Source of the DNA: Candidatus Nezhaarchaeales archaeon
Lineage (GTDB): Archaea; Thermoproteota; Methanomethylicia; Nezhaarchaeales; WYZ-LMO8
Assembly (NCBI GenBank): GCA_038887515.1
Contig: JAWAKK010000001.1
Span: forward strand, 710,205-774,204
Direction: 5' to 3'
DNA: 64,000 nucleotides
The translations under genes were made by a program, and so were the position numbers. The notes beneath the pieces are model-generated. The model did no database searches. It had not been told where the DNA came from and saw only the letters and a list, made by a program, of their open reading frames with translations. Position 1 is the first letter of the stretch; every line of letters begins with the position of its first letter. Of this stretch, positions 10,928 to 40,574 are shown in pieces.

Positions 10928-11899
10928 CTATGATGCTATGGGGATTTTGAGCTTCCTTATAAGCTCTTTGTACCGGTTCCTCACAGTTACCTCAGTGACT
11001 TGAGCTGCCCTAGCTATCTCCTTTTGAGTTTTTCTTTCACCAGTCAGTAGAGACGCTATGTATATAGAGGCTGCAGCTAGGCCGGCTGGATCCTTACCTG
11101 CTGTTAAGCCGGCTTTTCTAGCTTGCTGTATTATTTCGATGGCTTTCTTCTGTAGCACGCCGCTTAGACCTAGAGAACTAGTGATTCTCGGTACGAAATC
11201 TATCGGGTCTACTATCGGTATGTTAACTTTGACGTGTCTTAGCAATAATCGATAACACCTGGCAACGTCTTTTCTACCAGCTTTAGTGCAATCAGCTATT
11301 TCGTCGAGGGTTCTAGGAATTTTAAGCGTCCTGCAGGCAGCATGTATAGAGGCTGCCATAACCGATTCTATTGAACGCCCCCTAACTAGACCTGCTCTTA
11401 CGGCTTCTCTGTAGATCTTCAACGCCTCCTCCTTAACGTTCTGAGGTAGGTTTAACCTGAAGGCTATTCGTTCAAGGTGATTCGTTGCCTGCTGAATATT
11501 CCTATCTTGTGAAGTTTGGATCCTACTTCTTATCTGCCAGCGTCTCCACCTAGAGACTTCAAAAACCTTTTGAGGACTTAGCTTGTGGCCCGTCGCATCC
11601 CTAATGGGCCATTGTATAACCGTAGGAGAAACGCCTTCAGCTAATGTAGTGGAGATCGGGGGTCCAACTCTATCCCTCTTTTCCCTCTCTTCTGGCGTAA
11701 AAGCTCTCCACTCCGGGCCTTGATCAATAAGCCTTTCATCTATGACTAAACCGCAATTCATACATGTGAGTTCTCCACGATCATAACTCCTTACTATGTT
11801 CGAACTACCACATTCTGGGCACCGATCAATACCCTTAAAATCTACATCAGGCTTCTTATCCTCCATCCCCTTTCCAACATACAACTTATTCTCGGCCAT
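10928..11899 (-). CDS. tfb: Transcription initiation factor IIB (TFB)
   Basis: N-terminal zinc ribbon CPECGS...CMNCG followed by two cyclin-like repeats. GGAGG located 8 nt upstream of the ATG. Confidence 0.9.
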
Positions 11900-12114: not shown

Positions 12115-12211
12115 GGGCCCGTGGCGCAGCCCGGATAGCGCGGCGACAACCGTTAAGGTTGCCGTAAGCCTCCTAAGCCGTTGGTCGTGGGTTCAAATCC
12201 CACCGGGCCCG
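12115..12211 (+). tRNA. Intron-containing tRNA-Arg (anticodon CCU or CCG depending on intron position)
   Basis: 7-bp acceptor stem GGGCCCG/CGGGCCC. D-arm GCGC-AGCCCGGATA-GCGC. T-arm GTGGG-TTCAAAT-CCCAC. 97 nt, about 22 nt too long between the D- and T-arms. Removing nt 34-55 of the gene (genomic 12148-12169) gives a canonical loop CUCCUAA (U33, A37, anticodon CCU). A canonical 37/38 intron would give CCG with U at position 37. No CCA encoded. Confidence 0.7.
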
Positions 12212-13916: not shown

Positions 13917-14378
13917 GAACCTAAACCTTAAGCTGGCCTCGCGCCTTCTCGTAAGTACCTGCCCCCAAGTAATGTTCGACTTTATGGTCTTCTACGTAAT
14001 ACTTGATATTTATAAAATGCTTTTTAATTTTTACCCTTAAAAGCCCTAATTTACATAAAAAGTATCGGTACTGATGTGCTTCCCCACATAAAACTTTATG
14101 TAACATGAAGCGAGGGGGCCCGCTTTTAGGTCGACAATGTAAAGGTTTGAATACCTACGTGCAATCGTTTCAACGCACGATTTTCAAGTAATGTAAAGAG
14201 CTTTGACGTGATGTTCATTTATTTGAAGTAAAGTTTATTGGGATCCTTCTAAAGGAGTTTTCCCTATGGGAGGGAGACAAAGGACGACGCTACTGGAGAT
14301 TTTTGAAGAGAAGAAGAGTGGAACCGAGAAAAAAGCTAAAAAGTAGAAAGCCGTGAAAAATAAAAATGCGAAGTGTAA

Positions 14379-14398
14379 GGGGGGGGGGGGGGGGGGGG
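14379..14398. repeat. G20 homopolymer tract
   Basis: Twenty consecutive G at 14379-14398, read directly. Lies 31 nt upstream of the ATG at 14429. Overlapped only by an implausible poly-Gly N-terminal extension of the track ORF. Confidence 0.95.
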
Positions 14399-14428
14399 TC
14401 AACCGGAATTAATGAAAGGAGTAAGGGA

Positions 14429-15415
14429 ATGTCTCAGAAGCACAACGCCGTGGCAGAGAAGCTCTCAGAATATTGTAGATCTAATAAAGCTATAACCTCT
14501 TTCCTACAAGAAATGGTCCTAAGAGGTATTAGCGAAATAAGACCTATCATATCGAGTAACGTAGAATACCCCGAACTTTCAGAATTCTTTGGCAAAGAAG
14601 CCAGTAAGATGCTTGAAGTGATGATTAGGGATGGCATACTTAAAGGCGTGGTCGTTGATAGGATATTGATGTGCCCCGAGTGCAACGCAATAACAGTAAG
14701 GACGCGCTACTTATGTCCTAGCTGTAAGAGCTTTAACGTTGAGCGTGTCTCGCTTATAGAGCACATAATTTGCGGCTTTATTGGATCAAACAGGCTATTC
14801 AAGAAAGGTGAAAGCGAAGTGTGTCCACGCTGTGGCCGTACCTTAAAGAGGGCTCAAGTGGACTGGAGGATCATAGGTATGACCTTTGAATGCTACGATT
14901 GCGGACTCATGTTTGATGAGCCCAAGATAGCCCACAAGTGTCTACCAAACGGTCACGAATTCGACCCAACGAATTCGAAGTACGAAGCCGTTTACAAGTA
15001 CGTGATCAAAGACGAGGTCGTGAAAATGGTACAAGAAGGCTTCCTGGTAACTTCTACCATTCATCAAGTCCTCGCATCGTCAGGATACGAAGTCCATGTC
15101 GACGGGGCCGTAAGAGGCCTTTCTGGCGTCGACCATAGATTTAACGTCGTAGGATCAAAGGACGGAAAGTTGACAGTAATCGAAACTAGCAACTTGCAAT
15201 CGGGCAGAGAGCAGTTAATGCAGATGGTCGCTAAGGTCATAGACACCAAACCTTCGCGAGCACTATTAGTAGTGCTTTCTCAAAGCGAAGAGGGTTTAAG
15301 AGAGCTTGAATCTCTTGCCTCATCGTTAAACATACGACTTATTGCGGTCAAAAACTTAATGGAAATAGGGGAAGCTATCCGGCGGATATTAAGTGAGGAA
15401 AGCGAAAAATCTTAA
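14429..15415 (+). CDS. Multi-zinc-ribbon protein, candidate regulator of the adjacent type IV pilus locus
   Basis: Start moved to ATG 14429 (GGAG about 10 nt upstream), dropping the poly-Gly extension. Three CxxC pairs (CPECN...CPSCK, CPRCG, CYDCG) follow an N-terminal helical region. C-terminal ~130 aa of unknown fold. No confident family assignment. Confidence 0.5.
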   Translation: MSQKHNAVAEKLSEYCRSNKAITSFLQEMVLRGISEIRPIISSNVEYPELSEFFGKEASKMLEVMIRDGILKGVVVDRILMCPECNAITVRTRYLCPSCKSFNVERVSLIEHIICGFIGSNRLFKKGESEVCPRCGRTLKRAQVDWRIIGMTFECYDCGLMFDEPKIAHKCLPNGHEFDPTNSKYEAVYKYVIKDEVVKMVQEGFLVTSTIHQVLASSGYEVHVDGAVRGLSGVDHRFNVVGSKDGKLTVIETSNLQSGREQLMQMVAKVIDTKPSRALLVVLSQSEEGLRELESLASSLNIRLIAVKNLMEIGEAIRRILSEESEKS

Positions 15416-15419
15416 GAAC

Positions 15420-16280
15420 CTACAGTAGCTGCGTAAAGACTAAGATCAGTACCGCCAACATCAATGCCGAGTGCCTCAACCCAGTTAACATAGACCCCTT
15501 AGATATCTTTCCTATTGCAAGCCCAGCAGCTATGGCCTCTATTACCCCGCAATAGAAAAATATGGCTTTGTAGAAATCGATGCCCCTAAATCCCTTAACT
15601 ATCTCTCCAAAACCCTCCGTAAGCGTTAGGGGGGTTACTAGCTGAGTCATCAGTATGTAGACCGTTAACAGGTACACCACAAAGCTTACGTACATGATCC
15701 AGGTGTAGGACTTGAGCTCTGTCTCCTTCTCAGTTTCGTACGATTCCAAAGCTGAGTGTAATGTGAGGAAGGATTGAAGAATGTTTAGGGCTTTAGCTCC
15801 ACTCCTCATAACCTCTACGAGTAGTATAGATACCTTATCCATGAGCGGGGTCCTAGCCATCTTAGCTATGTCAATTATCGAAATTTCAGGGTCGAACCCT
15901 AACATCATCTTGGCGACTACTCTATTCAACTCCTTTGAAAGTGGACCGTAACGGTTTTTAGCGCACTCTTTAAGGGCAATCGTCAATGGAACGCCAGTCC
16001 TCACGTAATCTACTAAGTCCCTGATGAATTGGGAGACGCCTTTCTCAATCCCTCTCTTCCATCTATGCTCAAGGTCTTCAACCACTCCAACTATAAGGCA
16101 CAAGACCAAGATCCCTACACAGAATATAGAGTTGACCAGTTGGCTAGTAGGTATGAATATTGGAGGGGCGGGAGTGTAAAGCTTCAGGTAGAATGGCAAG
16201 TAGAATATCGCCACGGCAGATGCAATGGCCACAAAGTAAGTAGCCGCCTTCTGGCGGGGAGAGAAGAAGCGCCCGTTCAT
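15420..16280 (-). CDS. Type II secretion system F-domain membrane protein (TadC/FlaJ-like, second half)
   Basis: Polytopic membrane protein with one T2SSF-like domain. Its ATG lies one codon after an in-frame TAA that ends the upstream T2SSF gene (TAA-GCC-ATG). Confidence 0.6.
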   Translation of the reverse strand: MNGRFFSPRQKAATYFVAIASAVAIFYLPFYLKLYTPAPPIFIPTSQLVNSIFCVGILVLCLIVGVVEDLEHRWKRGIEKGVSQFIRDLVDYVRTGVPLTIALKECAKNRYGPLSKELNRVVAKMMLGFDPEISIIDIAKMARTPLMDKVSILLVEVMRSGAKALNILQSFLTLHSALESYETEKETELKSYTWIMYVSFVVYLLTVYILMTQLVTPLTLTEGFGEIVKGFRGIDFYKAIFFYCGVIEAIAAGLAIGKISKGSMLTGLRHSALMLAVLILVFTQLL

Positions 16281-16283: not shown

Positions 16284-17174
16284 TTACACCGACGAAAGCG
16301 CCTTGTCCATCAATACCAACACTATGGCCGCGAGTACCGGCATCAATACGAATGCTGTAAGCATAGTTACTGAGACCGGGTCAACGCCGAAGAGTTGTTG
16401 GCCGAGCATGGCCACTATGATCAGTATGGTTATGATAATTATTGGACCTACTATAACCAAGGCTACGTACATCTCGGATAGATATCCCATAGCCGTCAGG
16501 ACCTTGCGTAGAGTTGATCTCCTGAACTCTACGAGACTTTTCGCGTAGTCCATTAAGTACCCCGATACGTCTCCGCTCGAGCCTATGACGGTTGAGAGTC
16601 CTTCCAATAGTGTCTTCAAATGAATCGAGGGGGACCTATTGGCTGCTTCGTATAGGGCTTTTATGGGATCTACGTTGAATATAGCCATCTGTCTAAGTAT
16701 AAAGCAGAACGTGTTTTTAATGGCTTTCTCGCTCTCGATCTCCACGGTCCTCCTGATCAAGGTCTCGATAGTTGTTCCAGCTGAAGCCAGCGCAGCCATG
16801 TACTCCACAGTATATGGGAGGGCTCTGTCTATTCTAAAAGCCAAGTTCTTGGACCTTACATAAGGGTAGTATGCGCCTACCGTAAAAGTGACCGAGAAGC
16901 CTAGGATAGCCCATACAACTACGAGCACCAGCACATAGAGCATGGGTAGGCCCAGCACTAGGGCGTTGACTATAAAGGAAACAATGGCCGAGGCTACGCA
17001 GACCATTATGCTCATGAAGACGACTGCTGAGGCGTAAGCCGGAAATGGAATGCCCATCTGAGCCTTAAGGTACCTCTCCCTTACGAAGGAGATGAATGGA
17101 GAATTTGAGCTAGGCTTAAAGAGCCTGTAACTGAATGAGGATATGGCTTCGAGGAGACCGTTTCCCTTCGACAT
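16284..17174 (-). CDS. Type II secretion system F-domain membrane protein (TadB/FlaJ-like, first half)
   Basis: 296 aa. Cytoplasmic T2SSF-like domain (LPYTVEYMAALASAGTTIETLIRR) flanked by TM segments. Follows the ATPase gene after a 6-nt gap. Confidence 0.6.
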   Translation of the reverse strand: MSKGNGLLEAISSFSYRLFKPSSNSPFISFVRERYLKAQMGIPFPAYASAVVFMSIMVCVASAIVSFIVNALVLGLPMLYVLVLVVVWAILGFSVTFTVGAYYPYVRSKNLAFRIDRALPYTVEYMAALASAGTTIETLIRRTVEIESEKAIKNTFCFILRQMAIFNVDPIKALYEAANRSPSIHLKTLLEGLSTVIGSSGDVSGYLMDYAKSLVEFRRSTLRKVLTAMGYLSEMYVALVIVGPIIIITILIIVAMLGQQLFGVDPVSVTMLTAFVLMPVLAAIVLVLMDKALSSV

Positions 17175-17182: not shown

Positions 17183-18703
17183 CTAAGGGGTAGCTACCAA
17201 CTTTAGCAACTCACTCCTAGCCCTCTCGTAGGTTTCTCGAGGCTTTAAGTAGTAGCTTCTAATAACCTTGGCTACGTCGTCGTGCCTCGATAGGTCCTTC
17301 TTCAACATCCATTCAAGCACAACCTTCCTGTTCTCTAGTTCACTCGTAACGTTATCAAAACCTAGCCTCTTGACTATGATGCTGCCATCTGCTATCAACC
17401 TAGTGAAGGAATCGGTAAGCGGATCCCAACGATATATGGGATTTATCATGATTTCCCCGCTTCTAGGGTCTATCCCCGTGACCTCGTTTACCTCTATAAC
17501 CCTTCTAACCGTAACCCCTCTCACTTTTCTTCTAGCAACTAGTATTATGGTTTCAATCATTGGTATAAGTTCTCTAGGAACATTCATAGGCTTAGACTCG
17601 AGCCTCCTTATGGCCGCCTCTATGTTTTCAGCGTGTATGGTGCATAGACCTCCGTGGCCTGTAGCCACGGCTTGAAAGAGAGCGTAGGCTTCTTCGCCCC
17701 TGACTTCGCCGACGATTATGTAGTCGGGCCTTTGCCTTAAAGCGGACTTTAATAGGTCGAACGCCGATATCTCTGGGGCTCCATCGGTCGTGCTGGGCCT
17801 AGTAACTAAAGGGACCCAGTTCTCATGTGGGAGCATTAGCTCCCTCGTTTCCTCTATAGTTATTACCTTGGCTTCAGGCCTTATCAGGGCGGCTATAGCG
17901 TTTAGGAGAGTAGTCTTGCCGGACGCAGTTGCACCGCAAATAAGCATAGACCTCATTTGCTCGACCATAATCCATAGGTAAGCTGCTACTTCGCTCGACA
18001 AAGTACCTAACTTTATTAGGTCTATTATAGTAAACTTTTCAGGCCTATACTTCCTAATGGTAAAGGTCGACCCCCTCTTAGAGACCACGTCTAGGGTTAG
18101 GTGGACTCGATGTCCTTCAGGTAGCACGCCATCGATGACCGGCCTTGCAATGGAAACCTGCTGCTTAGCCTTAAACGACAGGGTCATGACGAAGGAGTTT
18201 AGTTCCTCCTCACTTTCAAAGGATACGTTCGTTGGAAGCTCCTCGTACTTTACGTGCCAAACGTATATTGGGATCCCGACGCCAGCGCAGCTTATATCTT
18301 CGATGTTGGGATCCCTAACTATGCCGTCTATCTTTCCGTAGCCCAGCAGGTCCCTAACTATGTAATAAAGTATCTTATCTAGGGCTTCTGAGGCCACCTT
18401 GAAGCCGTACTTCTTAATAACTTTCTTAGTTGCTTGGACTATGAAGGACCTCGCCTTTTCCGGGTCTTCTACGTCCTCTACGTCTACGTCAACCGACTCC
18501 TTGATGAACTCCTTGACCCTACGTACTACCTCCACCTCGTCCTGTAGAAGCGTTGGCTCTACGACTTCGTACCTAAGCTTCCCGACGGGATCCATTACTA
18601 TAGCTATGTGGCAGAAGGGGGGATTCACGGCGTAGAAGTCTCTTAAACGAGCTAGCTCAACTTGTTCTAAGCCCTTAGAGTCTCCAGCCCGCTTAATACT
18701 CAT
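17183..18703 (-). CDS. Type IV pilus/archaellum-family secretion ATPase (FlaI/CpaF/VirB11 superfamily)
   Basis: Walker A GATASGKTT, Asp/His boxes and typical length of 506 aa. Confidence 0.85.
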   Translation of the reverse strand: MSIKRAGDSKGLEQVELARLRDFYAVNPPFCHIAIVMDPVGKLRYEVVEPTLLQDEVEVVRRVKEFIKESVDVDVEDVEDPEKARSFIVQATKKVIKKYGFKVASEALDKILYYIVRDLLGYGKIDGIVRDPNIEDISCAGVGIPIYVWHVKYEELPTNVSFESEEELNSFVMTLSFKAKQQVSIARPVIDGVLPEGHRVHLTLDVVSKRGSTFTIRKYRPEKFTIIDLIKLGTLSSEVAAYLWIMVEQMRSMLICGATASGKTTLLNAIAALIRPEAKVITIEETRELMLPHENWVPLVTRPSTTDGAPEISAFDLLKSALRQRPDYIIVGEVRGEEAYALFQAVATGHGGLCTIHAENIEAAIRRLESKPMNVPRELIPMIETIILVARRKVRGVTVRRVIEVNEVTGIDPRSGEIMINPIYRWDPLTDSFTRLIADGSIIVKRLGFDNVTSELENRKVVLEWMLKKDLSRHDDVAKVIRSYYLKPRETYERARSELLKLVATP

Positions 18704-18836: not shown

Positions 18837-19265
18837 ATGAAGAAGGTTAAAGGGGTCTCCCCCATAGTAGCAGTACTATTACTCATAGTCATAGCTGTAG
18901 CGGCAGCTGCAATGACGTATGGCTTCGTAATGGGCTTCATAGGTGGAGCCGCAACAACTACAACAACGACGCAAGCAATGATAAGGGTAGAAGCAGTAGA
19001 TGCCACTACTGGTACTGATGCCACAGTATACGTTAGGAACATAGGCTCCATCCCTGTAACTGTCGACTTCATATATGTGTACCACGCTAATGGAACCCTC
19101 ATGAGTACACAACGGCTTTCGACTTCGATCACGATTCCTCCGGGTAATGTAGGTATAGTTTATGTCGATGGCCTAGATTTAAGTGGAGGGGTTACGTACT
19201 ACGTCAAGGTAACGACCAAGGAAGGAGCTATCGCGACATCGGAGCCCTTTAAAGTTAAAAGCTAG
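18837..19265 (+). CDS. Archaeal type IV pilin (class III signal peptide, DUF361-like N-terminus) with one beta-domain
   Basis: N-terminus MKKVKGVSPIVAVLLLIVIAVAAA matches the K-G-(V/I)SP-hydrophobic class III pattern. C-terminal ~90-aa domain is homologous to the repeats of the next gene. Start set to ATG 18837 rather than the track's GTG 18828. Confidence 0.7.
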   Translation: MKKVKGVSPIVAVLLLIVIAVAAAAMTYGFVMGFIGGAATTTTTTQAMIRVEAVDATTGTDATVYVRNIGSIPVTVDFIYVYHANGTLMSTQRLSTSITIPPGNVGIVYVDGLDLSGGVTYYVKVTTKEGAIATSEPFKVKS

Positions 19266-19411
19266 CCCGTAGTAGTGTGAGTAATACTATACGCAGTTAC
19301 TATAGTGTTTCGGGTCTAGCTTTTTTAACATACAATCAATTTTTCCTCCTTGTTATGTTTACCACAATAGTTATACCTAAAGCTGTTATAAAGAAGGATT
19401 TAGCGACGCCT

Positions 19412-20707
19412 ATGAGTGGAGGCAAGGGGATCTCTCCGATAGCTTCTACGCTATTGCTAATAATGGTTGTAGTTGCTGCTACGGTAACCACGTACAACTT
19501 AGTTATTGGACTTGTAGGAGTAACCGCTACATCGCCTCTACGATCTGTAATAAGGGTGGACGAAGTTAGCATCTCTGGTAGCGAGCTTACTGTTTACGTC
19601 AGGAACCTTGGTCCGGCTCCAATGACGCTAGATTCGGTATACGTGTACTCTGTTGACGGGGTACTAGTCGGGCGCGTTCATATTAACCCCAAAACGATAG
19701 ATGCGGGAGAGGTTGAGGCTATTACGGGCATACCAATTGGTTACTTGAAGGAGGGGGGTGTCTACTACATCAAGGTAGCTACAATGGAGGGAGCTATCGC
19801 GTCTTCCCAAGCATTTAAAGTCGGATTAGCTAAATCAGCTAAAGCTATAATAGTGATAGAAAGATTGGAGACCGAGCCAGCTACATTGAACACATTCAAT
19901 GCTACACTGTACGTCAAGAATGCGGGCGACGTCCCAGTGACGATAGACGAAGTACGCGTATACTACTCGTTATCGAAGAAGACTTTACTGGAAAGCATTG
20001 ACATTGCAAAGAGATTAAATCCTGGAGAGACTGTGAGGATCGTTATTGACAAAATACCATACGACATAGAGCGGCAGAGGCCTAGCTACGAGATTGAAGT
20101 AACAACTATAGAAGGAGTTATAGCAACTACGAAGGCTATGGTACTAGCAAGAGAAATGTTGGTAGAAACAGGATTAAGTGCGGAAGGATTCAACATAGAC
20201 GCCTCCATATACGTTATAAATTATGGCGCTGCCCCAGCAATAATAGATAAAGTACAAGTATACATCGATGGAGAGTTGGACAGTATCGTAAACCTTGGGA
20301 ACTTGTCGCTAGGTGTGACGAGTTCAACAACCATTAATTTCAACGTTACTATAGATCCAAGCAAGTCCTACTCCTTCAAGATTGTAGGAAGTGATGAGGC
20401 TTTAACGTCGTGGCGAGCAATAGTGGTAGCTGAAGCGAGTGCAACACCGATAAACGATCGCAGTTACAGCGTTACTGTTTACGTTAGGAACGTCGGCTCC
20501 ACCCCCGTAACGATTTACGGCTTGTACATACAATCTGAACGAGGGGACTTAATAGTGCCCCTGATAGATGTAGGGGAGGTGATAAAGCCAAAAGAGATTA
20601 AAGAGATAATTAATCCAATTACCCTAACGAATGGGACATACTACATATTCGTGTTTACTGATGAGCCTTGGTTTTTAGAAGCGAAGACGAGGCTAGAATT
20701 GGTATGA
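19412..20707 (+). CDS. Modular type IV pilin/adhesin with class III signal peptide and four tandem beta-domain repeats
   Basis: Internal ATG 19412 gives MSGGKGISPIASTLLLIMVVVAA, a class III signal. Four ~90-aa repeats share an xxYVRNxGxxPVTID-like core (TVYVRNLGPAPMTLD, TLYVKNAGDVPVTID, SIYVINYGAAPAIID, TVYVRNVGSTPVTIY). The 45-aa extension in the track ORF is probably not translated. Confidence 0.65.
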   Translation: MSGGKGISPIASTLLLIMVVVAATVTTYNLVIGLVGVTATSPLRSVIRVDEVSISGSELTVYVRNLGPAPMTLDSVYVYSVDGVLVGRVHINPKTIDAGEVEAITGIPIGYLKEGGVYYIKVATMEGAIASSQAFKVGLAKSAKAIIVIERLETEPATLNTFNATLYVKNAGDVPVTIDEVRVYYSLSKKTLLESIDIAKRLNPGETVRIVIDKIPYDIERQRPSYEIEVTTIEGVIATTKAMVLAREMLVETGLSAEGFNIDASIYVINYGAAPAIIDKVQVYIDGELDSIVNLGNLSLGVTSSTTINFNVTIDPSKSYSFKIVGSDEALTSWRAIVVAEASATPINDRSYSVTVYVRNVGSTPVTIYGLYIQSERGDLIVPLIDVGEVIKPKEIKEIINPITLTNGTYYIFVFTDEPWFLEAKTRLELV

Positions 20708-23200: not shown

Positions 23201-23268
23201 CCTAACTACATCTTGAAGGCTTAATAATTAAGTGTTACTTAGGTATTTTTATCTACTTGAAGCTTCTT

Positions 23269-24018
23269 ATGGAACCTGACGTTGATATTGCATGTTTGGA
23301 GTTAAGGGCCAGCCTAACGAACAGCGAAGCGATAATAATGGTTGGAGGCTGCGAAGTCGAATATAGTGGGCGCGCAAGCTCAACGTTGACTAGGGGTGAA
23401 AAATAGTCGTAGTAAAGCAAGATGGCTCTGTTCTAGTCCATGGACCTGAAGGTTACGAGCCCGTTAACTGGCAACCGCCCGGCTGTCTATTTAAGGTGGC
23501 TAGCCTAAGTGGACTACTAAAGATCGTTGCTACGAGGCCTAGCCCTCGCGAGGTTTTGACGATATCGTTCCATAAGATCCATATGATGGCCTGTAGGAAG
23601 CTACATGACGCAGGAGCATTCTCTATGTATGTGAGCGAGGACGAGATGAAGGAGGCTATAAGGCTTAACCCATCGTTAATCGAGGAGGGGGCTTAAAATC
23701 TTGACCTCAGAGAAGGGTCTCGGAGAAGCTGGCTACGCAGGTTTTGTAGGCGAGGATTCTAAAGGAAACTTCGTAGTGATAGAAGTCAAGAGAGGAACTA
23801 CGGGAGAAGAAGTCATACAGCTCGCTAGGTACGTTAACGAAGCTAAACAGAGGGTTAATAGATCCGTTAGGGGAATACTCGTCGCCTCCCCATTGAAGAA
23901 GAAGGGGCAACTACTCTTAGAACGATTTAAGCTCGACTTCAAGGCGTTAACGCCTGAGAATTGTAGGAAGTTCTTAAAGAAAGCTTCAGGTACGAGCCTA
24001 CTTGAGTTCATGGAGTGA
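23269..24018 (+). pseudogene. nucS: NucS/EndoMS mismatch endonuclease gene interrupted by two frameshifts
   Basis: Three consecutive frame segments read as one NucS. Segment 1 (23269-23409): MEPDVDIACLELRASLTNSEAIIMVGGCEVEYSGRASSTLTRGEK. Segment 2 (23403-23696): KIVVVKQDGSVLVHGPEGYEPVNWQPPG. Segment 3 (23680-24018): GYAGFVGEDSKGNFVVIEVKRG, the PD-(D/E)xK nuclease core. Frame shifts occur at an A5 run (23402-23406) and at a G5/A4 run (23687-23698). Confidence 0.7.
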
Positions 24019-25540
24019 GCGAGATTAGCTTCAAAACTGCGCTGTTCATCTCTTCAGTAAAGATCGTCGGGTACAAGCCCAGGAACAGCGATATGATAGC
24101 CATGACTATTAGCGGAGCGAGGAAACTTAATGAGGCCTCTTTAACTCCATTAAGTTGCGGTGGGGTTTGTCCGAAAAGTATTCTCCTTATGGGCCAAAGC
24201 GCGTAAGCGAATGTTAAGACTGTTGCCACTATGGCCACTACGACTATAAATATCTTAAACGACTCGGAGGCTAGAGAGGCAGAACCTATAGCGCTCGTAA
24301 ATATCATCCATTCACTTATGAAGCCGCTAGTGAAGGGTACTCCCATTAGTGTGAAGAAGCCTATAAACATAGTTACAGCAGTGTAAGGCATTTTACCCGC
24401 TAGCCCTCCCATCTGGCTTATGCTCCTCGTACCGACTTGGAGCGTAAATACGCCGACTAAGAGGAACAATATCGCTTTGCCCATGGCGTGGGCTACGTAA
24501 TGAAACATGGAGCCCGTGGCGCCTATAATGGCTAAGTTCTCGGCTTTCATGCTTATTGCTAAGGCCGCAGCTCCAAGGCCTAGCAATATGTAGCCCATCT
24601 GGCTTATGCTCGAGTAGGCTAGCAACCTCTTAAGGTCCTCTTGACTTAAAGCGTTGGCAGCTCCGTATATCATAGTTATAGTGGCTAGGACTATCATCGC
24701 CGTAGAGACGTATTGCAAGGCAGGCGTGTAGAGGAAAACTATCCTAACTATGGCGTAGGCCGCCAAACCGCTCATAGCTGACGAGAGCAGAGCCGTTATC
24801 GGTGTAGGGGCTTCGACGTAGGTGTCTGGAAGCCAGCTGTGAAGTGGGAAGATCGCCATCTTCACGAAGAAGCCTATGAGCATCGCCGAAACGATTGCCG
24901 TTAGGACCTCAACGCTAGGGTTAAGTTGCGCTATCTTTAATGGAATTTCATATATCTCAAGAGTATGAAGGTAGCCGTTGGTCGCAACTATCCCTGCTAG
25001 GAAGCAAAGCGCTCCAGCTTCGGTGAACAAGAAGTACTTTAAAGCGACCTTCTCCTTCTCGCCGGTGCCCCACTCGTTTATTAGGGCCCAAGAGGCTACG
25101 ACCGCGATTTCGAAGAATACGAAGAACTCTACTAGGTTTGTGGAGAGAGCTAGCCCTATCATTCCTAGGAAGAATAGCTGGTAGAGACTGAAGAAGATGC
25201 CCATGTTTGGCGAGTCCTTCATGAGTTTTATCGTGTATAGAGCAGTTAGAGCCGCGACTATTGCTACCGTCAAAGCTATTGGCGAGCTTAGGCCGTCAGC
25301 CTTGAAACCAAACCTCAACGCTATGCTGTCCGTTATAACCCAATCGTACACCTTCTCATAGGATGAAGCTACGCCCGTAAAGATCTTATACGTCGAAATT
25401 CCGAAAATTCCTATCGAAAATAATGAGAGTAAGAAGGATATAAGGCCATTCCACCTGCCTAAGAGCTTGTTGAGCCCTAAGATTATTAGCGACGCTATCG
25501 CAGGTAATATTACGGTGTAAGGAAGAAGTTCTTCTATCAT
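24008..25540 (-). CDS. nuoN: NADH-quinone oxidoreductase antiporter-like subunit (NuoN-like)
   Basis: 510-aa polytopic membrane protein of the Mrp-antiporter/NuoLMN family. Last gene of the nuo cluster. Assignment of N versus M is by position only. Confidence 0.75.
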   Translation of the reverse strand: MIEELLPYTVILPAIASLIILGLNKLLGRWNGLISFLLSLFSIGIFGISTYKIFTGVASSYEKVYDWVITDSIALRFGFKADGLSSPIALTVAIVAALTALYTIKLMKDSPNMGIFFSLYQLFFLGMIGLALSTNLVEFFVFFEIAVVASWALINEWGTGEKEKVALKYFLFTEAGALCFLAGIVATNGYLHTLEIYEIPLKIAQLNPSVEVLTAIVSAMLIGFFVKMAIFPLHSWLPDTYVEAPTPITALLSSAMSGLAAYAIVRIVFLYTPALQYVSTAMIVLATITMIYGAANALSQEDLKRLLAYSSISQMGYILLGLGAAALAISMKAENLAIIGATGSMFHYVAHAMGKAILFLLVGVFTLQVGTRSISQMGGLAGKMPYTAVTMFIGFFTLMGVPFTSGFISEWMIFTSAIGSASLASESFKIFIVVVAIVATVLTFAYALWPIRRILFGQTPPQLNGVKEASLSFLAPLIVMAIISLFLGLYPTIFTEEMNSAVLKLISLTP

Positions 25541-27586
25541 CTACCACAACCCCCCTAGCTTAAGCAACATTAATGCTATTATTATGAGTCCTATCAACAT
25601 GCCTACGATGTTGTAGTTGAGGAAACCTGTCTGCAACCTCCTAAACCTGGAGGCAAAGCCTACAACGCTCGATGCAAAGCCGGTTACTGCTCGATAGAAC
25701 CCCTTGACTTCAATCCAGTTGTAGAGGCCCCGAGACGCTGAAATTAGAGGGTACACAAAAGCGTTGTAGTACATTTTATTTATGAACCACCTCTTGAAGA
25801 AGAACGTATGGAGTGCACGTAGCACCAGACTCTTAGACACTATAGCTGAAGGATTTACCCTCTTACTTATGTACATGAAGTACGCTGGGACTGCGCCTAT
25901 AATGAGCATGGCTATCGCTATTGGTAACGTTATGAACTGGGGACTTACCGCCTCGGCTTCTACATGCATCGCTAGCGAATGTAATACCGAGTATGGAGCC
26001 ATGCTTGAGAAAGCATGGTGAAGAGATTCTTCTACCCACAATCCAACAATCCCTATGCCGAGGGAGGATATAGCCAGTATTGCGTAGGGCACGTACATTA
26101 TCGGGCTTGCCTCCTCGATCTTATGCCCTTCAGCCTCGAGCTCTATAATCCTATGACTTTTCTCTCCATGGAACGTAAGCCCCATCATTCTAACAGTGTA
26201 AAAGGCCGTTAGCGCCGCTGTTACTATTGCTAATACGAATGGGCCTACTAGACCCGCCTCCCAGCTTACAGTTAAGACGGCTTCTTTACTCCAGAAACCG
26301 CTGAATGGTGGTACTCCTGCTAGCGATAGGGCGGCAAGCCAAGTTGCTACATACGTTATAGGCATATACTTTCGGAGGCCACCCATGTGGTACATAAACC
26401 TAGACTCGACAGCGTGTATTATAGCTCCAGCCGCGAGGAATAGAGCTGCTTTAAAGATTGCGTGGCTCATTAAGTGAAACATTCCTGAAGTTAACCCTTC
26501 AACTACTCCGTGCGCTAATAGGCCCCCAGCCCCCAGCGCTAAGAACATGTAACCTATTTGGCTAATGGTTGAATAGGCCAACACCTTCTTTATCTCCCTT
26601 GAAACCATTGCTTGTGTCGCAGCGAGGAAGGCTGTAAAGGCACCTATCCACGCAATCGTAGTGAAGAAGGTCGATAGTTCCGATATACCTAGTACGTGAT
26701 AGGCAAACCAGAATATAGGGAGGACTCTTGCTACTAGGTACACTCCAGCCTTAACCATGGTAGCAGCATGTATAAGGGCGCTAACGGATGTTGGACCAGC
26801 CATAGCGTCGGGAAGCCATTCGTGAAGCGGAAACTGAGCCGACTTTCCCACCGGGCCCATGAAGAATAGGATTGCCGCCGGAAGTAGAAGCCCAGCGCTT
26901 CTTAACGCCGGAGCCCACTGATCAACCTTATGTAGGAGCTCTGAGTAGCTGAAGGTTCCTGCAAATGCATAGATCATGAATATCGAGGCTAGCAAGCATA
27001 TGTCACCAATTCTGGTGGTTATGAAGGCTTTCATACCTGCATGTGATGGTGGATAGGCCTCATCGCCTTCCCCAACCCAACACTTCAACCAGTCATCCTT
27101 CGAGTCCCTATACCAAAAACCTATGAGAGCGTAGCTGCAGATGCCTACGCCCTCCCAGCCAAAGAACATAAGGAGCAAGTTGTCGGACATCACCAAGAGG
27201 AGCATACTACCGATGAAGAAGTTCATAAAGAACCAATACCTAGTAAGGCCCGGTTCTCCGTGCATGTACTTCAAGGAGTAGATCATTATCAGAAAGCTGA
27301 TCCAGGCGACTACGTTGGCCATTATTATGCTTAAGGGGTCTACTACGACGCCCATATCGATTCTTAGCGACGGTATCCAGCTAAAGCTCTCAGAGTTAAA
27401 TAGCGGAGGGGGTTCCTTGAACAATAGTGGTATCATGGTCGAGGCGGATACGGCTGCGAATAGCGAAAATAGAACGGCAACGTAATCCCTAACGCGCGAA
27501 TTAATTTTTGCGAATAGTGGAGTTAAAGTGGCGCCAACCATTGGCAGGATCCAGCAAAGCCAAGCGCCGACGTATTTAGGCAACAA
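25541..27586 (-). CDS. nuoL: NADH-quinone oxidoreductase subunit L (NuoL-like)
   Basis: 681 aa, the longest antiporter-like subunit, with a C-terminal extension. TTG start bounded by an upstream stop. Confidence 0.8.
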   Translation of the reverse strand: MLPKYVGAWLCWILPMVGATLTPLFAKINSRVRDYVAVLFSLFAAVSASTMIPLLFKEPPPLFNSESFSWIPSLRIDMGVVVDPLSIIMANVVAWISFLIMIYSLKYMHGEPGLTRYWFFMNFFIGSMLLLVMSDNLLLMFFGWEGVGICSYALIGFWYRDSKDDWLKCWVGEGDEAYPPSHAGMKAFITTRIGDICLLASIFMIYAFAGTFSYSELLHKVDQWAPALRSAGLLLPAAILFFMGPVGKSAQFPLHEWLPDAMAGPTSVSALIHAATMVKAGVYLVARVLPIFWFAYHVLGISELSTFFTTIAWIGAFTAFLAATQAMVSREIKKVLAYSTISQIGYMFLALGAGGLLAHGVVEGLTSGMFHLMSHAIFKAALFLAAGAIIHAVESRFMYHMGGLRKYMPITYVATWLAALSLAGVPPFSGFWSKEAVLTVSWEAGLVGPFVLAIVTAALTAFYTVRMMGLTFHGEKSHRIIELEAEGHKIEEASPIMYVPYAILAISSLGIGIVGLWVEESLHHAFSSMAPYSVLHSLAMHVEAEAVSPQFITLPIAIAMLIIGAVPAYFMYISKRVNPSAIVSKSLVLRALHTFFFKRWFINKMYYNAFVYPLISASRGLYNWIEVKGFYRAVTGFASSVVGFASRFRRLQTGFLNYNIVGMLIGLIIIALMLLKLGGLW

Positions 27587-27723
27587 AGCTTGTCACCTTC
27601 GCAACGCCTTTCTCTGGTTTTGTAGAAATGTATTTAACATTTACTCGTTGAATTACTTGGAGATTAAGCTTCAAATATAATTATAATGCTAGGTGCAATG
27701 CATTGGTAGACGTGGTTTCGTTG

Positions 27724-28353
27724 ATGATGAGTTTTGCAGCGAAGTACTCTTATCTAGGGGTTTTCATAGTCTCGATACTTTCGAACATGGTGCTATTCCT
27801 TCCTATGCCGTACTTGGCAGCCATACTTCTTCTAGCTGCAACAACCAATATGAATCCATTACTACTTGCCGTCGCAAGCGGCTTAGGATCGGGCGTTGGA
27901 AAGTTGTTTGCTTACTTTATAGGATTCTTTGGAAGAACCTTCCTAAAAGGAAGGCGTAGAGAGAACCTTGACTCCTTAGCTAAAATCGTGGGCAGAGGCG
28001 GGATGATAGCCGCGCTAGTAGTTTCAGCCATCCCTCTCCCGGACGATATAGTCCTTGTCCCCCTAGGAACTATAAAGTACAGCCTAATGAAGTTCTGGGT
28101 GGCGACTACGCTCGGAAAGACGCTCTTAGCGCTACTTACCTGCTACTTTGGAAAAACGCTAGCCATTTTCGTGGAGTACGTCGGTGGGACGCCGTTAATG
28201 TCGGCTCTGATATCAATAGCTATAGTCGTCATAGGCATGGCCATCGTCATAAAAGTCGACTGGATAAGGATAGCGACGATAATCGACGAGGAAGGATTAA
28301 GAGGGGTCGCTAAGAGGATAAGACGCGAAGGGTTTAAGTGGCTATTTACTTAA
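27724..28353 (+). CDS. DedA/TVP38-family membrane protein
   Basis: Polytopic membrane protein with DedA-like pattern (SYLGVFIVSILSNMVLFLPMPY). Start set to ATG 27724 rather than the track start 27703. Confidence 0.65.
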   Translation: MMSFAAKYSYLGVFIVSILSNMVLFLPMPYLAAILLLAATTNMNPLLLAVASGLGSGVGKLFAYFIGFFGRTFLKGRRRENLDSLAKIVGRGGMIAALVVSAIPLPDDIVLVPLGTIKYSLMKFWVATTLGKTLLALLTCYFGKTLAIFVEYVGGTPLMSALISIAIVVIGMAIVIKVDWIRIATIIDEEGLRGVAKRIRREGFKWLFT

Positions 28354-29644
28354 AGAAGTCTGCGATACTTGTTTGGCCTCGGCGATCTCTAGTAGCTGTG
28401 TTAGAGTTAAGGCATTCGTCGTCGAGCATGAGCTTACCATATACGCCGTCGTAACCCGGCTTTACAGCGATAAGCCCACTCCTTACTTTAACTATAGCTT
28501 CAGCTATCCTACCCGGAACTATGCTCTGGAGTTCTTTAAGGTTAGCGTTCAAGAGTACATTGAACTCGTTGCCAAAGCCCTTTATCAACCTCATGTATAG
28601 CTCCCACACTTGCCCGGAGTATAGCTTTGCCTCCCCTCTAACCTTCAGGCACTCTGCTATGATCTCTGCTAATGGAAGAAGTTTTTTAAAGCCTATAACA
28701 TTAGGAGGTTTAAACCCTCTAGGTCTGTCAGCAAGCTCTTCGACCCTCTGTTCGACGCCCTTAGTTAATGGCTTTCCACAAACTGGACATTTATTGCCCA
28801 GCTTAATAGCCTCTTCAGGGGGCATTGAAACTCCACACCTTCTATGGCCGGTCCAATGGTACTTACCATAAGCTGGGTCTACCTCTATGGTCATTAGGAA
28901 CTTAGAAGGATTCTTGCTAACTATAGCCTCCATTAGTTCTCGATAAGAGGGCTCTTTCAAGTAGAAGACGTTCGATTCTCTGCCTAGTCTGTGAGGGTAG
29001 GGGCTATGACTGTCGCTGTTACTCAGGAGGGCTAACCTGTCAAGCGATGAAACTCGCCAGTTCATCTCCGGGTCGGAGCTAAGCCCCGTTTCAAGAGCCT
29101 TTATCTTGTGGCTCTTGTCTCCATAGCATTCTTCAAGGCTATCTACACCACCAATAGAGCCAAAGATCGACCACCACGGAGTCCAAGCGTGAGCGGGAAA
29201 TACGAAGACGTCGTCGTCTATATGCAGGAGCGTTTCTACAAGTTCTGCCGGACTTATGGTAAAAACCGGGCGACCATCAGCCTTAAGGTCGCAAAGGTTA
29301 GAGAAAACATCAATTACTTGCTCCGCGACTTCAAGGCTTGGCATCAGTAGGACGTGGTGTATCCTTCTCTTCTTTTTGTCAACTTCATGTATCGTTCCAA
29401 CTTCTGCCTGAACCACGAAGTACAGGTCGACCTGAGAATTCTTGATCCTATATAAGCCTGTACCAGGTACTTCTTCTAAGTTTTCCTTTAGCTCTTTAAG
29501 CCACAGCGGGTGAAGTGCGTCACCGGTTCCAATGAGGTTTACTCCCTTTATAGGGGCATATATTGAGAGCCCCTTTATATCCATCTTCTCAGAGGTAGCT
29601 CCGCTATACTTCGAATGGATGTGTAGGTCCGCGTATATAATCAA
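28346..29644 (-). CDS. endoQ: PHP-domain phosphoesterase with zinc ribbon, EndoQ-like (COG1379)
   Basis: N-terminal PHP motif YADLHIHSKYS. Internal C...CPVCG zinc-binding segment. 432 aa, matching archaeal endonuclease Q architecture. Assigned from memory of the family. Confidence 0.55.
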   Translation of the reverse strand: MIIYADLHIHSKYSGATSEKMDIKGLSIYAPIKGVNLIGTGDALHPLWLKELKENLEEVPGTGLYRIKNSQVDLYFVVQAEVGTIHEVDKKKRRIHHVLLMPSLEVAEQVIDVFSNLCDLKADGRPVFTISPAELVETLLHIDDDVFVFPAHAWTPWWSIFGSIGGVDSLEECYGDKSHKIKALETGLSSDPEMNWRVSSLDRLALLSNSDSHSPYPHRLGRESNVFYLKEPSYRELMEAIVSKNPSKFLMTIEVDPAYGKYHWTGHRRCGVSMPPEEAIKLGNKCPVCGKPLTKGVEQRVEELADRPRGFKPPNVIGFKKLLPLAEIIAECLKVRGEAKLYSGQVWELYMRLIKGFGNEFNVLLNANLKELQSIVPGRIAEAIVKVRSGLIAVKPGYDGVYGKLMLDDECLNSNTATRDRRGQTSIADFFK

Positions 29645-29727
29645 TTGAGGTTACCCGCTTACAGCTACGGTTTACGGTTTCGCAGGGAAAAATGTTTCTT
29701 AACTTAATTTATGGATATGTTGTGGAG

Positions 29728-31290
29728 TTACGGCAATCTGAATAGGGATATCGCTGCTTTCTGGGCTGCATCTATTATTGGCCAAGGATAGCACCCGATC
29801 ACTATTAGGACTACCATGAGAATTACGAGCGGTGCGACCACTATCGGTGAGACCTCGCTGAGCCCTTTAGTTCTCTCTCCTTTCTGTCTAATAACGCATA
29901 TTTGGAGTAGCCTCAAGTAGTACGCCGCGGCAAAGACGCTGTTTACAAGCATTAGTGAGGTTGCTACGTTCATAAACAAGTCGCCTACGCTGTAACCAGC
30001 CATCAATAGTACAAACTTGCTAACAAAGCCAGCTAGAGGAGGAGCTCCACTTAACGATAGTAGACCTATAGAGAATGAGGCCCCCGCCCACGGCATTGCC
30101 CTCCCCACGCCCTCGAGGTCATAGATGTTCCTCGTCTTTGCCTTCGTGATGAAGGATCCTGCCGCAAGGAAGAGTAACCCTTTACCTACCGCGTGTGATA
30201 ATACATGCAGTAACGCTCCTACAATGCCCATCATTCCTGCGACGAGCGCCGGCTCGGCGCCAGTCATTGACCATAATCGTAGACTGTAGGCTGCTACACC
30301 TAGCCCGAAGATTATGAAGCCTATATTGACGGTACTGGAGAAAGCTAGGAGTCTCTTTAGGTCCCTCTGTAGCAGGGCCATGATGTTTGCGACCGTTGCA
30401 GTTATAATGGCGAAGACTACGAAGAGGACTCCATAACTAAATGCGGATGGAGAGAATATCGTAAAAGAGCTCCTCGTAATAGCGTAAACAGCCACTTTGA
30501 TTACTAAACCAGACAACATTGCACTTATGGAGCTCGGAGCGGCTGGGTGAGCGTCTGGAAGCCACGTGTGGAAGGGTACTATTGATGCCGTGACGCCGAA
30601 ACCTACGAATATAAGCGCCAAAGTGATATAGCCGAACCAAGGATCAATAGTAGACTTGGAAAATATCACAGAAAGAGCGGAGAAGTTTAGTGTACCAGCA
30701 TAACCATAAAGTAGAGCGATGCCTAGCAACGCTATGAGCGAACCGAAAGTGCTCATAACTAAGTACTTGAACCCAGCTTCTATGGGCTCCCACCTGTACT
30801 TCCTGAACGAAACTAGGGAGTACGAAGATATGCTCATAAGCTCCCAGAATACGAAGAGCGTGAAGAAGTCTCCGGCAACCGCCACCCCAATCATGCCAGC
30901 CACCAATAAGAGTAACAACGTGTAGTACCTGTCTAGGCCCGTATCGTGCTCCATGTACTTTATGGAATAAATAGACACGAGTAACCCTAGTGCACTAAAT
31001 AGTAGGACCATGAACATGCTCAACGCATCTACCTTGACCTCGACCCCTAATGGTGGCCCAAACCCTGGGAACGACGATACAATACCTTCAGCTGGCAGAA
31101 GCCCATACATATCTATAGATAGAACTAGAGCTATTAGGAAGCCCAGTGTAGCAAAGATCCCTGAAGAATACTTGAACCCAGCCTTTCCCTCTATATAGCC
31201 TACTATCGGAGTTAAGGCTGAAAAGACCATAAGCGCTATTATTGGCTTTAAGGCGGTTACAATATCTACCTCGATTGCCAAAGCTACCAC
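29728..31290 (-). CDS. nuoM: NADH-quinone oxidoreductase antiporter-like subunit (NuoM-like)
   Basis: 520-aa NuoLMN-family membrane protein. Overlaps nuoK by 7 nt. GTG start. Confidence 0.75.
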   Translation of the reverse strand: MVALAIEVDIVTALKPIIALMVFSALTPIVGYIEGKAGFKYSSGIFATLGFLIALVLSIDMYGLLPAEGIVSSFPGFGPPLGVEVKVDALSMFMVLLFSALGLLVSIYSIKYMEHDTGLDRYYTLLLLLVAGMIGVAVAGDFFTLFVFWELMSISSYSLVSFRKYRWEPIEAGFKYLVMSTFGSLIALLGIALLYGYAGTLNFSALSVIFSKSTIDPWFGYITLALIFVGFGVTASIVPFHTWLPDAHPAAPSSISAMLSGLVIKVAVYAITRSSFTIFSPSAFSYGVLFVVFAIITATVANIMALLQRDLKRLLAFSSTVNIGFIIFGLGVAAYSLRLWSMTGAEPALVAGMMGIVGALLHVLSHAVGKGLLFLAAGSFITKAKTRNIYDLEGVGRAMPWAGASFSIGLLSLSGAPPLAGFVSKFVLLMAGYSVGDLFMNVATSLMLVNSVFAAAYYLRLLQICVIRQKGERTKGLSEVSPIVVAPLVILMVVLIVIGCYPWPIIDAAQKAAISLFRLP

Positions 31291-31610
31291 CTCAACCTCC
31301 GGAGCTTCTTTAAGTCAAGGGTCTTAAAGTGGCGGTAGGCGTTGATTACCAATGAGAGGGCTAACGCGGCTATCGCTCCTCCAATTACTATCGATATTAT
31401 GACGAAAGTCTGAGCTAAAGGATCTATAATATTGGCAGGATACATCCTCATCCAGCCCAACGATATGAAGGCTGTGTTAACGGCTATGGTCATTATTTCT
31501 ATGCCTATAACGGTCTTTATCATGTTCCTCTTTGAAGCAAGACAGTAGACTCCTATCGCTAGCAGTATTATGGATGTTGCAAAGTAGGCTTGAGGTGGTA
31601 AATACTCCAC
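31284..31610 (-). CDS. nuoK: NADH-quinone oxidoreductase subunit K
   Basis: 108 aa with three TM segments. Conserved position between nuoJ and nuoM. Confidence 0.75.
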   Translation of the reverse strand: MEYLPPQAYFATSIILLAIGVYCLASKRNMIKTVIGIEIMTIAVNTAFISLGWMRMYPANIIDPLAQTFVIISIVIGGAIAALALSLVINAYRHFKTLDLKKLRRLRW

Positions 31611-31613
31611 TCC

Positions 31614-33557: not shown

Positions 33558-33561
33558 GATT

Positions 33562-34743: not shown

Positions 34744-34745
34744 AT

Positions 34746-39761: not shown

Positions 39762-40574
39762 TTGAATCTACTTCACCTAACCGCTATTGCTAAGATTTCG
39801 TTGTGCTCCATAATTCTCGGCTTCGCATCCTTTCAGGATTGGAGGACCAGGGAGATAAGCGACGTAGTCTGGATAGTCATGGGGGGCTTTGGGGCTACGC
39901 TAACCACCATAGAGTTGTTGACCGACTTCTCTTACGGCTTCCTTCTAATGCTTGCTGCATCGGTAGCCACGTGTTTCTTCCTTGGCTTCGGCCTATACCG
40001 CTTGGGCTTCTTTGGAGGAGCAGATGCAAAGTGCTTGTGGTGTATAGGCGTAACCCTCCCCTATAACCCGCTTACCAGCCTAGGGCTTAGCCCCGTTGGC
40101 CTTCAAAACCCCATCTTCTCGATCTCAATATTCAATAACTCCATATTGACTGCCGCTTTCTTAGCGTTGGGCATCATGTGCTTTAACGCCGTAATGAAGA
40201 CGAGGCGCCATCTATTTTCAGAAAGCGAAGAAAAGAGTTTATGGAAGAGGTTCGTTGTCCTAGCATTGGGCTACAAGATGAAGATATCAAGAGTCTTAGA
40301 GAAGAAAGACTTCTACTTCCCTCTTGAGGTATTCTCACACGAAAACGGCCGTGTTAAAAGGAGATTTAAGTTTACGGCAAGGTGTATGGACGACGATCCC
40401 TACGCAGAGCTTACGAGACTTGTAAACGCTGGAATTGTAAGTGTAGACGAGGAGATATGGGTCTCTCCAGCAATCCCGCTTATAATCAACATAACAGTCG
40501 GGTTCCTGGTATCATTACTTTACGGCGACTTAGTACTATCTATAGCTAGGGCAGCCCTAAGCTTAACACTATAA
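39762..40574 (+). CDS. Prepilin/preflagellin peptidase (A24 family, PibD/FlaK-like)
   Basis: Polytopic membrane protein with the second catalytic-Asp motif FGGADAKCL and a conserved Asp in the first cytoplasmic loop (REISDVVW). TTG start. Confidence 0.55.
   Translation: MNLLHLTAIAKISLCSIILGFASFQDWRTREISDVVWIVMGGFGATLTTIELLTDFSYGFLLMLAASVATCFFLGFGLYRLGFFGGADAKCLWCIGVTLPYNPLTSLGLSPVGLQNPIFSISIFNNSILTAAFLALGIMCFNAVMKTRRHLFSESEEKSLWKRFVVLALGYKMKISRVLEKKDFYFPLEVFSHENGRVKRRFKFTARCMDDDPYAELTRLVNAGIVSVDEEIWVSPAIPLIINITVGFLVSLLYGDLVLSIARAALSLTL

Follow-up and report, generated by a model that had tools for sequence, protein, structure and literature searches.

We analysed a 64-kilobase (kb) stretch of a metagenome-assembled genome (MAG) of Candidatus Nezhaarchaeales, which we call the window. 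Two adjacent genes within it encode a 142-amino-acid (aa) pilin, pA, and a 431-aa pilin, pB, and these are the only proteins with class III signals within the 64-kb window. As far as we can judge from sequence and predicted structure, pB is a modular type IV pilin of an uncultured archaeon of the TACK group (Thaumarchaeota, Aigarchaeota, Crenarchaeota, and Korarchaeota), and its module is a tandem array of immunoglobulin-like (Ig-like) domains that derives from the pilin itself. The initial annotation had placed the gene at 19412-20707 and had read it as a pilin with four repeats of about 90 aa. The coordinates hold from ATG to stop, and so does the repeat structure. It had also spoken of Crenarchaeota, but the host is a Nezhaarchaeales MAG and not a classical crenarchaeote. 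The two pilin genes and the parts of pB are as follows.

18837..19265, plus strand: pA, single-domain pilin, presumed major; 142 aa; Pfam Pilin_N and TIGR02537
19320..19393, plus strand: putative intergenic signals, read from the sequence
19412..20707, plus strand: pB, four-domain pilin gene; ATG at 19412, stop at 20705-20707, 431 aa
19412..19522, plus strand: class III signal of pB; leader MSGGKG, predicted cut before Ile7, hydrophobic N-terminal helix at aa 7-37
19532..19822, plus strand: R1, proximal Ig-like domain, aa 41-137; with the helix it makes up the "pilin moiety"; 43.8% identity to pA over aa 5-137
19823..20140, plus strand: R2, aa 138-243, including the 15-residue R1-R2 linker; strands at 147-243
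20141..20416, plus strand: R3, aa 244-335, the most diverged repeat, with a low-confidence linker (aa 244-258) at its front; CARDB match
20417..20704, plus strand: R4, aa 336-431, distal beta domain; found by blastp against pA and by a hidden Markov model (HMM)

The N terminus of pB, MSGGKG followed by ISPIASTLLLIMVVVAATVTTY, fits the archaeal class III motif ([KR]G, then [VIL]SP and a hydrophobic helix). The more detailed family definition asks for a short charged leader ending in [KR]G, a cleavage site just before [VIL]-S/T-P, and some 25-30 aa of hydrophobic helix; pB agrees with it (MSGGKG followed by ISPIASTLLLIMVVVAATVTTYNLVIGLVG), and the longer read of the signal, MSGGKG followed by ISPIASTLLLIMVVVAATV, is textbook archaeal class III. 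In an alignment with 54 other pilins, pB retains all of the invariant columns (G6, S8, L14, L15, L16, I17, V21, and Y28). The claim of a class III signal is thus upheld by the motif, the invariant columns, and the predicted helix.

The rest of pB consists of four diverged all-beta domains of about 92-106 aa, and each of them is a homologue of the one globular domain in pA. blastp of pA against pB gives four separate matches, with E values of 2e-31 (R1), 1.5e-12 (R2), 1.6e-5 (R3), and 3e-9 (R4). In Smith-Waterman alignments compared with 1000 shuffles, the repeat pairs have z = 6.6-13.3, except for R3-R4 (z 2.2), and if the pA domain is included with the four segments, the scores are 5-26 standard deviations over the shuffles, again except for R3-R4. 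An HMM from 53 foreign homologues also finds four domains in pB, with independent E values of 3.3e-31, 3.6e-10, 1.6e-5, and 2.2e-10 for R1 (with the helix), R2, R3, and R4; this test is not circular because the profile holds no sequence from the window. The core motif that the repeats had been said to share is present in all four (TVYVRNLGPAPMTLD, TLYVKNAGDVPVTID, SIYVINYGAAPAIID, and TVYVRNVGSTPVTIY), and in pA it reads TVYVRNIGSIPVTVD. As had been proposed, the pilin upstream contains just one domain of this kind, according to Pfam, alignment, and the structural model. The R1-R2 junction of pB reads AFKVGLAKSAKAIIVIER.

At the DNA level, the repeats are alike only in a short core, with 63-84% identity over 38 nucleotides (nt); the core of R4 is 84% identical to that of pA. 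Because only this 38-nt core is still recognisable in the DNA, the duplication must be old, and a recent tandem duplication of DNA is ruled out. The sequences indicate that R2-R4 are products of an ancient tandem duplication of the pilin head domain. The initial annotation's idea of domain amplification agrees with this: it is the pilin's own globular domain that was copied.

The AlphaFold2 model of pB has a mean predicted local distance difference test (pLDDT) score of 79, a predicted template modelling score (pTM) of 0.37, and low-confidence linkers. It shows a helix at 9-37 and all-beta domains at 47-131, 147-243, 260-326, and 338-430, each with seven to eight strands; the strands of R1 (47-131) have pLDDT of 81-97. 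Given the linkers and the low pTM, we picture pB as flexible beads on a string. The nearest solved structure to both pilins is the "flagellar-like" pilin of Pyrobaculum calidifontis (PDB 8FK7; PMC10334743). Foldseek matches the helix and R1 of pB to 8fk7_A (TMt 0.62, 28% identity), so R1 forms an Ig-like beta-sandwich after the helix, as pilins of this kind do, and phmmer finds the 8FK7 pilin with aa 5-132 of pB (E 4.6e-9). The pA model (pLDDT 86) has 8fk7_A as its best PDB match (E 2e-10, 34% identity, template modelling scores of 0.61/0.64), with further matches to FlaG/FlaF and other archaeal pilins. For the rest of pB, the Foldseek matches are tandem Ig arrays, namely transglutaminase C-terminal barrels, macroglobulin domains, and an adhesin repeat region. 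R3 passes the threshold of Pfam CARDB (PF07705) and has a seven-strand Ig-like sandwich: aa 259-324 match with E 2.3e-10 and 41.0 bits against a gathering cut-off of 22.7. Just one of the four repeats does so (the Pfam scan does not report CARDB for R1, R2, or R4), and the repeats are closer to archaeal pilin heads than to CARDB. Together, the model, the CARDB match, and the Foldseek results bear out the suggestion of an Ig-like or beta-sandwich fold.

pA scores above family cut-offs for Pilin_N (PF07790; 33.1 against 25.2 bits) and TIGR02537 (27.9 against 20). For pB, we place it in the pilin family because of the family alignment and the match to 8FK7. The helix and R1 of pB align end to end with one-domain pilins, which themselves end 1-3 residues past FKV, and with a whole pilin moiety followed by folded C-terminal modules, pB is a modular pilin sensu Pelicic (PMC9934059). 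We also considered UpsA (NF046073; 25.7 for pB and 40.6 for pA, cut-off 130) and ArlG (NF052591; 26.8, cut-off 110). Both were ruled out, and these scores reflect distant homology only.

pB is 100% identical to a protein on a 776-kb contig that is listed at NCBI as a "hypothetical protein." The NCBI annotation starts at ATG 19355 and has 450 aa, which would leave the mature protein unchanged. We tentatively favour ATG 19412 because of a T6 run, a TTATAAAG box, and the short leaders of the orthologues. The T6 run (19320-19325) is a possible terminator for pA, and TTATAAAG (19386-19393), about 20 nt 5' of ATG 19412, is a possible TATA box, from which the pB transcript would be nearly leaderless. 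pB contains four N-x-S/T sequons.

pA has 55 homologues in a word-indexed search, mostly from Nezhaarchaeales-like and Methanosuratincola MAGs, and all are of 129-155 aa except for one truncated match of 87 aa. Relatives of pB are far harder to find. Word-indexed searches of 5.8 billion sequences, with the whole of pB or with R2-R4 alone, returned only pB itself, and scans of GTDB genomes and JGI metagenomes for peptide patterns of pB or of the aligned R2-R4 regions turned up no relatives. When 1.84 billion representative proteins were searched exhaustively with HMMER, just two (P0057 and P0058) proved to cover R2-R4, at about 40% identity, and a third (P0059) corresponds to the helix and R1 at 48% identity. 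(Another HMMER match, P0076, which has 1135 aa and 8 matching stretches, proved misleading, as it is a TPR-like repeat protein.) The three proteins lie on two short metagenome contigs, L006 and L007, from a single sequencing run. Both contigs are syntenic with the window: the end of a pA-like gene, then a pB-like gene, then the gene for ribosomal protein L15e.

The initial annotation suggested comparing repeat number among strains. The number does vary, as the second pilin of related loci has 0, 1, 2, or 4 domains. In two loci (L001 and L003), a single pilin gene precedes that for L15e. In two more (L004 and L005), the second pilin has one domain (148-151 aa) and is 54-58% identical to pA, as against 37% to pB. 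On an unrelated metagenome contig, L008:480-1235 encodes a two-domain pilin 3' of a pA-type pilin; its leader is out of frame because an A7 run (ATGTTGAAAAAAAGG) has one A too many, which is either an error or a slippage-prone tract. A recent or strain-specific amplification does not fit, as the two orthologues at about 40% identity share R2-R4 domain for domain. Each domain of pB has its best match in the same-numbered domain of the orthologues, so the four-domain form predates the split of these lineages.

The initial annotation had called repeat pilins poorly described in Crenarchaeota, which needs qualification. Of the best 150 relatives, about 22 are long pilins in which the helix and first domain, the only shared part, are followed by other C-terminal modules, for example DUF2341 and LamG/pentaxin-like lectin domains, so this pilin family often carries displayed modules. 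By these comparisons, modular pilins are common in the family, and what is rare is a module built from the pilin's own head domain. P0070, P0120, P0131, P0136, P0145, and others have 350-1500 aa and combine a pilin moiety with DUF2341/LamG/pentaxin-like or large beta-rich regions; judging from their sequences, these long relatives are an unannotated pool of archaeal modular pilins.

The distal domains evolve much faster than the pilin moiety. Between the window and L007, the identity of R1 through R4 is 48.5, 45.7, 35.6, and 34.6%. Between L006 and L007, R1 is 79% identical in protein (83% in nt) and the L15e flank is 81% identical in nt, whereas R2-R4 are 22-36% identical in protein, their DNA is nearly unalignable, and synonymous differences are saturated. 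Because R1 and the flank are so much more conserved, the distal module must be diversifying quickly or be exchanged between lineages. The pattern points to R2-R4 as a hypervariable or exchanged cassette between conserved flanks, and on these alignments the R1/R2 junction is the homology breakpoint. R2-R4 are open for 264-294 codons in the window, L006, and L007, and their nonsynonymous divergence (dN) is well under the synonymous divergence (dS).

The remainder of the pilus system is encoded on the other strand next to pA, except for the peptidase.

15420..16280, minus strand: TadC/T2SSF-like platform protein, half-size gene 2/2; Pfam T2SSF 2.7e-11
16284..17174, minus strand: TadC/T2SSF-like platform protein, half-size gene 1/2; Pfam T2SSF 6.2e-12
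17183..18703, minus strand: pilus assembly ATPase (T2SSE/FlaI-like), divergent from the pilin genes; Pfam T2SSE 2.6e-36
39762..40574, plus strand: prepilin/preflagellin peptidase of the A24 family; Pfam Peptidase_A24 6.5e-11 and Arc_PepC_II 1.4e-20

The gene order is two TadC/T2SSF genes and the ATPase (minus strand), pA and pB (plus), L15e (minus), a radical-SAM gene, and an NTPase, and the related locus L001 has the same pair of TadC-like genes. The system is minimal: beside a single ATPase and a pair of TadC halves, it has a small and a long pilin. The A24 peptidase gene is about 19 kb from the pilin genes; its product has the archaeal C-terminal domain, scores 83 bits against NCBIfam FlaK (under the cut-off), and is the enzyme that we expect to process both pilins. 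The best NCBIfam match of the ATPase is FlaI (NF058587), at 395 bits against a cut-off of 550. We do not assign the locus to an archaellum, as the ATPase falls under the FlaI equivalog cut-off and Pfam scans of most of the long open reading frames (ORFs) of the window found no accessory genes (the ArlF/G/H/J/X set).

A gene with a TackOD1 domain (TACK output domain) adjoins the TadC genes both in the window (14366-15415) and in L001 (1596-2567), and its product is a possible regulator of the pilus. Just 5' of the probable true start of the TackOD1 gene in the window, ATG 14429, is a run of 20 Gs (14379-14398), which could be a sequencing artefact or an odd homopolymer tract beside the pilus locus. 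A homologue of TFIIB is encoded at 10928-11899, about 3.5 kb from the pilus locus; TFIIB homologues accompany some archaeal type IV pilus loci (Makarova et al., PMC4858521).

In our view, pB serves a simple TACK-type pilus system as an accessory, modular type IV pilin, and we would put the probability of this at roughly 60%. By analogy, it is probably a rare adhesin-type pilin that acts beside an ordinary major pilin; the roles of pA as major pilin and pB as minor or tip pilin are suggested by conservation, by rarity, and by bacterial modular pilins. That pA-type pilins are common and sufficient in relatives, while the pB type is very rare, also argues for an accessory role. The assembly genes next to the pilins, in a layout that equals that of clade 4B loci (PMC4858521), and the peptidase gene within the window are in keeping with a part for pB in a pilus. 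The A24 peptidase would cut pB after Gly6, and the FlaI-like ATPase and the two TadC-like proteins would build its helix and R1 into a filament in which pA is the main subunit. Because (we propose) R2-R4 cannot be packed into the shaft, these domains would stick out as a flexible stalk about 10 nm long, either at the pilus tip or thinly spread along its length. The stalk might serve as an adhesin or a spacer. Packing in the filament would keep the pilin moiety constant, while the exposed distal domains would be free to diversify quickly.

Several results weigh against this reading. The family models Pilin_N (at E <= 1) and TIGR02537 do not report pB. According to Makarova et al. (PMC4858521), loci of this kind should have two major pilins. 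Both orthologous contigs are broken at the R1/R2 border (L007:587-625 and L006:244-308, which correspond to window 19780-19850), so the long form may not always be one chain. Also, the nucS endonuclease gene of the window (23257-24018) is split over three frames, which match residues 1-49, 47-145, and 145-253 of a relative's NucS; the frameshifts are at short homopolymers (A5 near 23400 and G5 near 23688), so nucS is either a pseudogene or has indel errors of the MAG.

In L007, there is one in-frame TGA at precisely the point where one-domain pilins stop (FKAKTI*). Past it, R2 continues to be recognisable: the next 12 codons align with its first strand, and AIIEVERV, encoded between the TGA and the start chosen by the gene caller, pairs with AIIVIERL of R2. 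In L006, one extra T (at the VKVVTKEGA motif) truncates R1 about 15 codons earlier than the TGA of L007, and with one T removed the frame runs into R2-R4 without a stop. Gene callers split the pB-like locus in both contigs. The RNA 3' of the TGA is about as stable as shuffled sequence (z 0.24), so we see no pointer to a structured read-through signal, and the shift site in L006, ACC-T-AAG, is not recognisable as a slippery site. We do not take either interruption as evidence of recoding. Sequencing or assembly error is a live explanation because of the A7 frameshift in L008 and the two homopolymer frameshifts in nucS; pseudogenisation, phase variation, and recoding are other candidate causes.

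Perhaps, then, the 431-aa chain is not a normal product: the ordinary arrangement could be a one-domain pilin gene and a separate R2-R4 region, which a lost stop codon or an assembly error joined in this genome, or the locus could be decaying. The TGA of L007 at the end of a one-domain pilin, the insertion in R1 of L006, and the split gene calls are what such a history would leave. It would also account for why the border coincides with a homology breakpoint (79% identity in R1 against about 32% in R2-R4 between L006 and L007), and the frameshifted nucS of the window MAG is in keeping with decay or error. But R2-R4 alone could not be exported because they lack a signal peptide, and the alignment of the L007 residues after the TGA with R2, the read-through of L006 once one T is removed, and the long open frames with dN well under dS in three loci all speak for a continuous protein. 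As the A7 run of L008 shows, indels occur elsewhere in these Logan contigs. We consider a split gene quite unlikely.

It would be more of a stretch to see the border as a regulated switch, with a leaky stop in L007, a frameshift in L006, and homopolymer slippage in the leader of L008. One locus would then yield a short shaft pilin most of the time and a long stalk pilin now and then, much as phage Q-beta makes its minor coat protein A1 by read-through. In the genome of the window, the long form would have become fixed as a gene of its own beside pA, and R2-R4 would be a swappable or diversifying surface cassette. We regard this as a long shot.

If instead pB is one chain and a pilin, as we prefer, it might still not be accessory. 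It could be a second major pilin, which forms its own thicker, "bottle-brush" filament via the same ATPase and TadC proteins, with a stalk on every subunit. The type IV pilus loci of Thermoproteales clade 4B have the same set of genes as our locus (one ATPase, two TadC-like proteins, and two PilA pilins), and each pilin of such loci was predicted to be major and sufficient for a pilus (Makarova et al. 2016, PMC4858521). We liken the loci by gene set and not by ATPase clade. They differ in that our host belongs to the Nezhaarchaeales and that the published pilins are both small and both taken as major. Further, pB retains all of the invariant helix residues and may have its own promoter-like TATA, and the size of the outer domain varies widely among archaeal pilins and flagellins (PMC10334743). 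However, a filament would be very crowded if each subunit bore about 290 more residues on flexible linkers. Relatives manage without pB, which is extremely rare, and the distal domains are hypervariable rather than constrained by packing. So we think that a second major pilin is unlikely.

In Sulfolobales, class III signals are also found on surface proteins that are not pilins. This raises the question of whether pB is in a filament at all: it might use the signal only for export and membrane anchoring and form a stalk of Ig domains at the cell envelope, like the sugar-binding proteins of the Sulfolobus bindosome. The ATPase does have a partial match to the bindosome ATPase BasE, but at 233 bits against a cut-off of 1000 it is far under the cut-off and weaker than the match to FlaI. 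Pfam and NCBIfam scans found no substrate-binding domain in pB. And the helix and R1 are 44% identical to an adjacent bona fide pilin and are homologous to the pilin of a solved filament. It seems improbable that pB is a non-filament surface protein.

As an accessory modular pilin, pB can be compared with several known systems. 8FK7 resembles pA and pB in having a class III signal, a helix, and one Ig-like beta-sandwich, and both systems have a FlaI-like ATPase. But the 144 aa of 8FK7 make up a single domain, against four domains in pB; a KaiC/FlaH-like ATPase, present in the P. calidifontis locus, was not seen beside the pilin locus of the window; and the P. calidifontis pilin has a disulfide, whereas pA and pB are without cysteine.

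The closest functional analogy for pB is with the modular pilins of Streptococcus sanguinis (PMC9934059). PilB has a vWA module and PilC has Ig-like and ConA-like lectin modules; these modules are on short flexible loops, and for them a place at the pilus tip and a part in adhesion are proposed or shown. Like PilB and PilC, pB has a pilin moiety and bulky C-terminal modules, and relatives of pB hold DUF2341 and LamG/pentaxin lectin-like modules in the same position. On the other hand, PilB and PilC are bacterial and have an unrelated globular pilin fold, and the module of pB consists of three diverged copies of its own head, with no recognisable ligand-binding domain. Among archaea, euryarchaeal pilins of the arCOG02911 type have class III signals, about 250-550 aa, and a tendency to duplicate; they are all-beta, with an Ig-like fold suggested, and are predicted to be minor pilins (PMC4858521). 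We liken pB to them by description only. They come from Euryarchaeota, and no description has them arising by internal tandem copying of the domain of a neighbouring major pilin. Targeted literature searches found no published description of a pilin with a self-derived tandem Ig array.

We also note a few features elsewhere in the window. The region at 52000-58700 is a low-GC island (38% versus about 46%) with genes for a nucleotidyl transferase, an epimerase/dehydratase, a UDP-glucose dehydrogenase, a GT1 glycosyltransferase, and two ORFs without a family; it is a cluster for glycan synthesis and was possibly acquired horizontally. ARAGORN reports a 97-nt "tRNA-???" with a four-base anticodon at 12115-12211, which is probably an archaeal tRNA that contains an intron. 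A long cluster of subunits of a complex I / Mrp-type membrane-bound oxidoreductase is at 24008-35990 on the minus strand, with three Proton_antipo_M, NADHdh, 49-kDa/NiFe-like, 30-kDa, and 20-kDa subunits and a ferredoxin.

To our knowledge, the archaeal type IV pilus structures determined so far are of one-domain pilins, and minor or tip pilins of archaea are almost uncharacterised. Because the long subunit of this locus is plainly derived from the short one, it offers a clean test of how archaeal pili display domains, whether at the tip or along the shaft. If our reading is right, duplication of the head domain is a way for a filament subunit to acquire a stalk. The conserved pilin moiety and the fast-diverging distal domains suggest selection on an exposed surface, perhaps by attachment partners or viruses. 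More broadly, pilins of this family often carry grafted modules in Nezhaarchaeales, Methanosuratincola, and related groups. Our findings leave current views standing, but they would extend the concept of the modular pilin to an uncultured TACK lineage.

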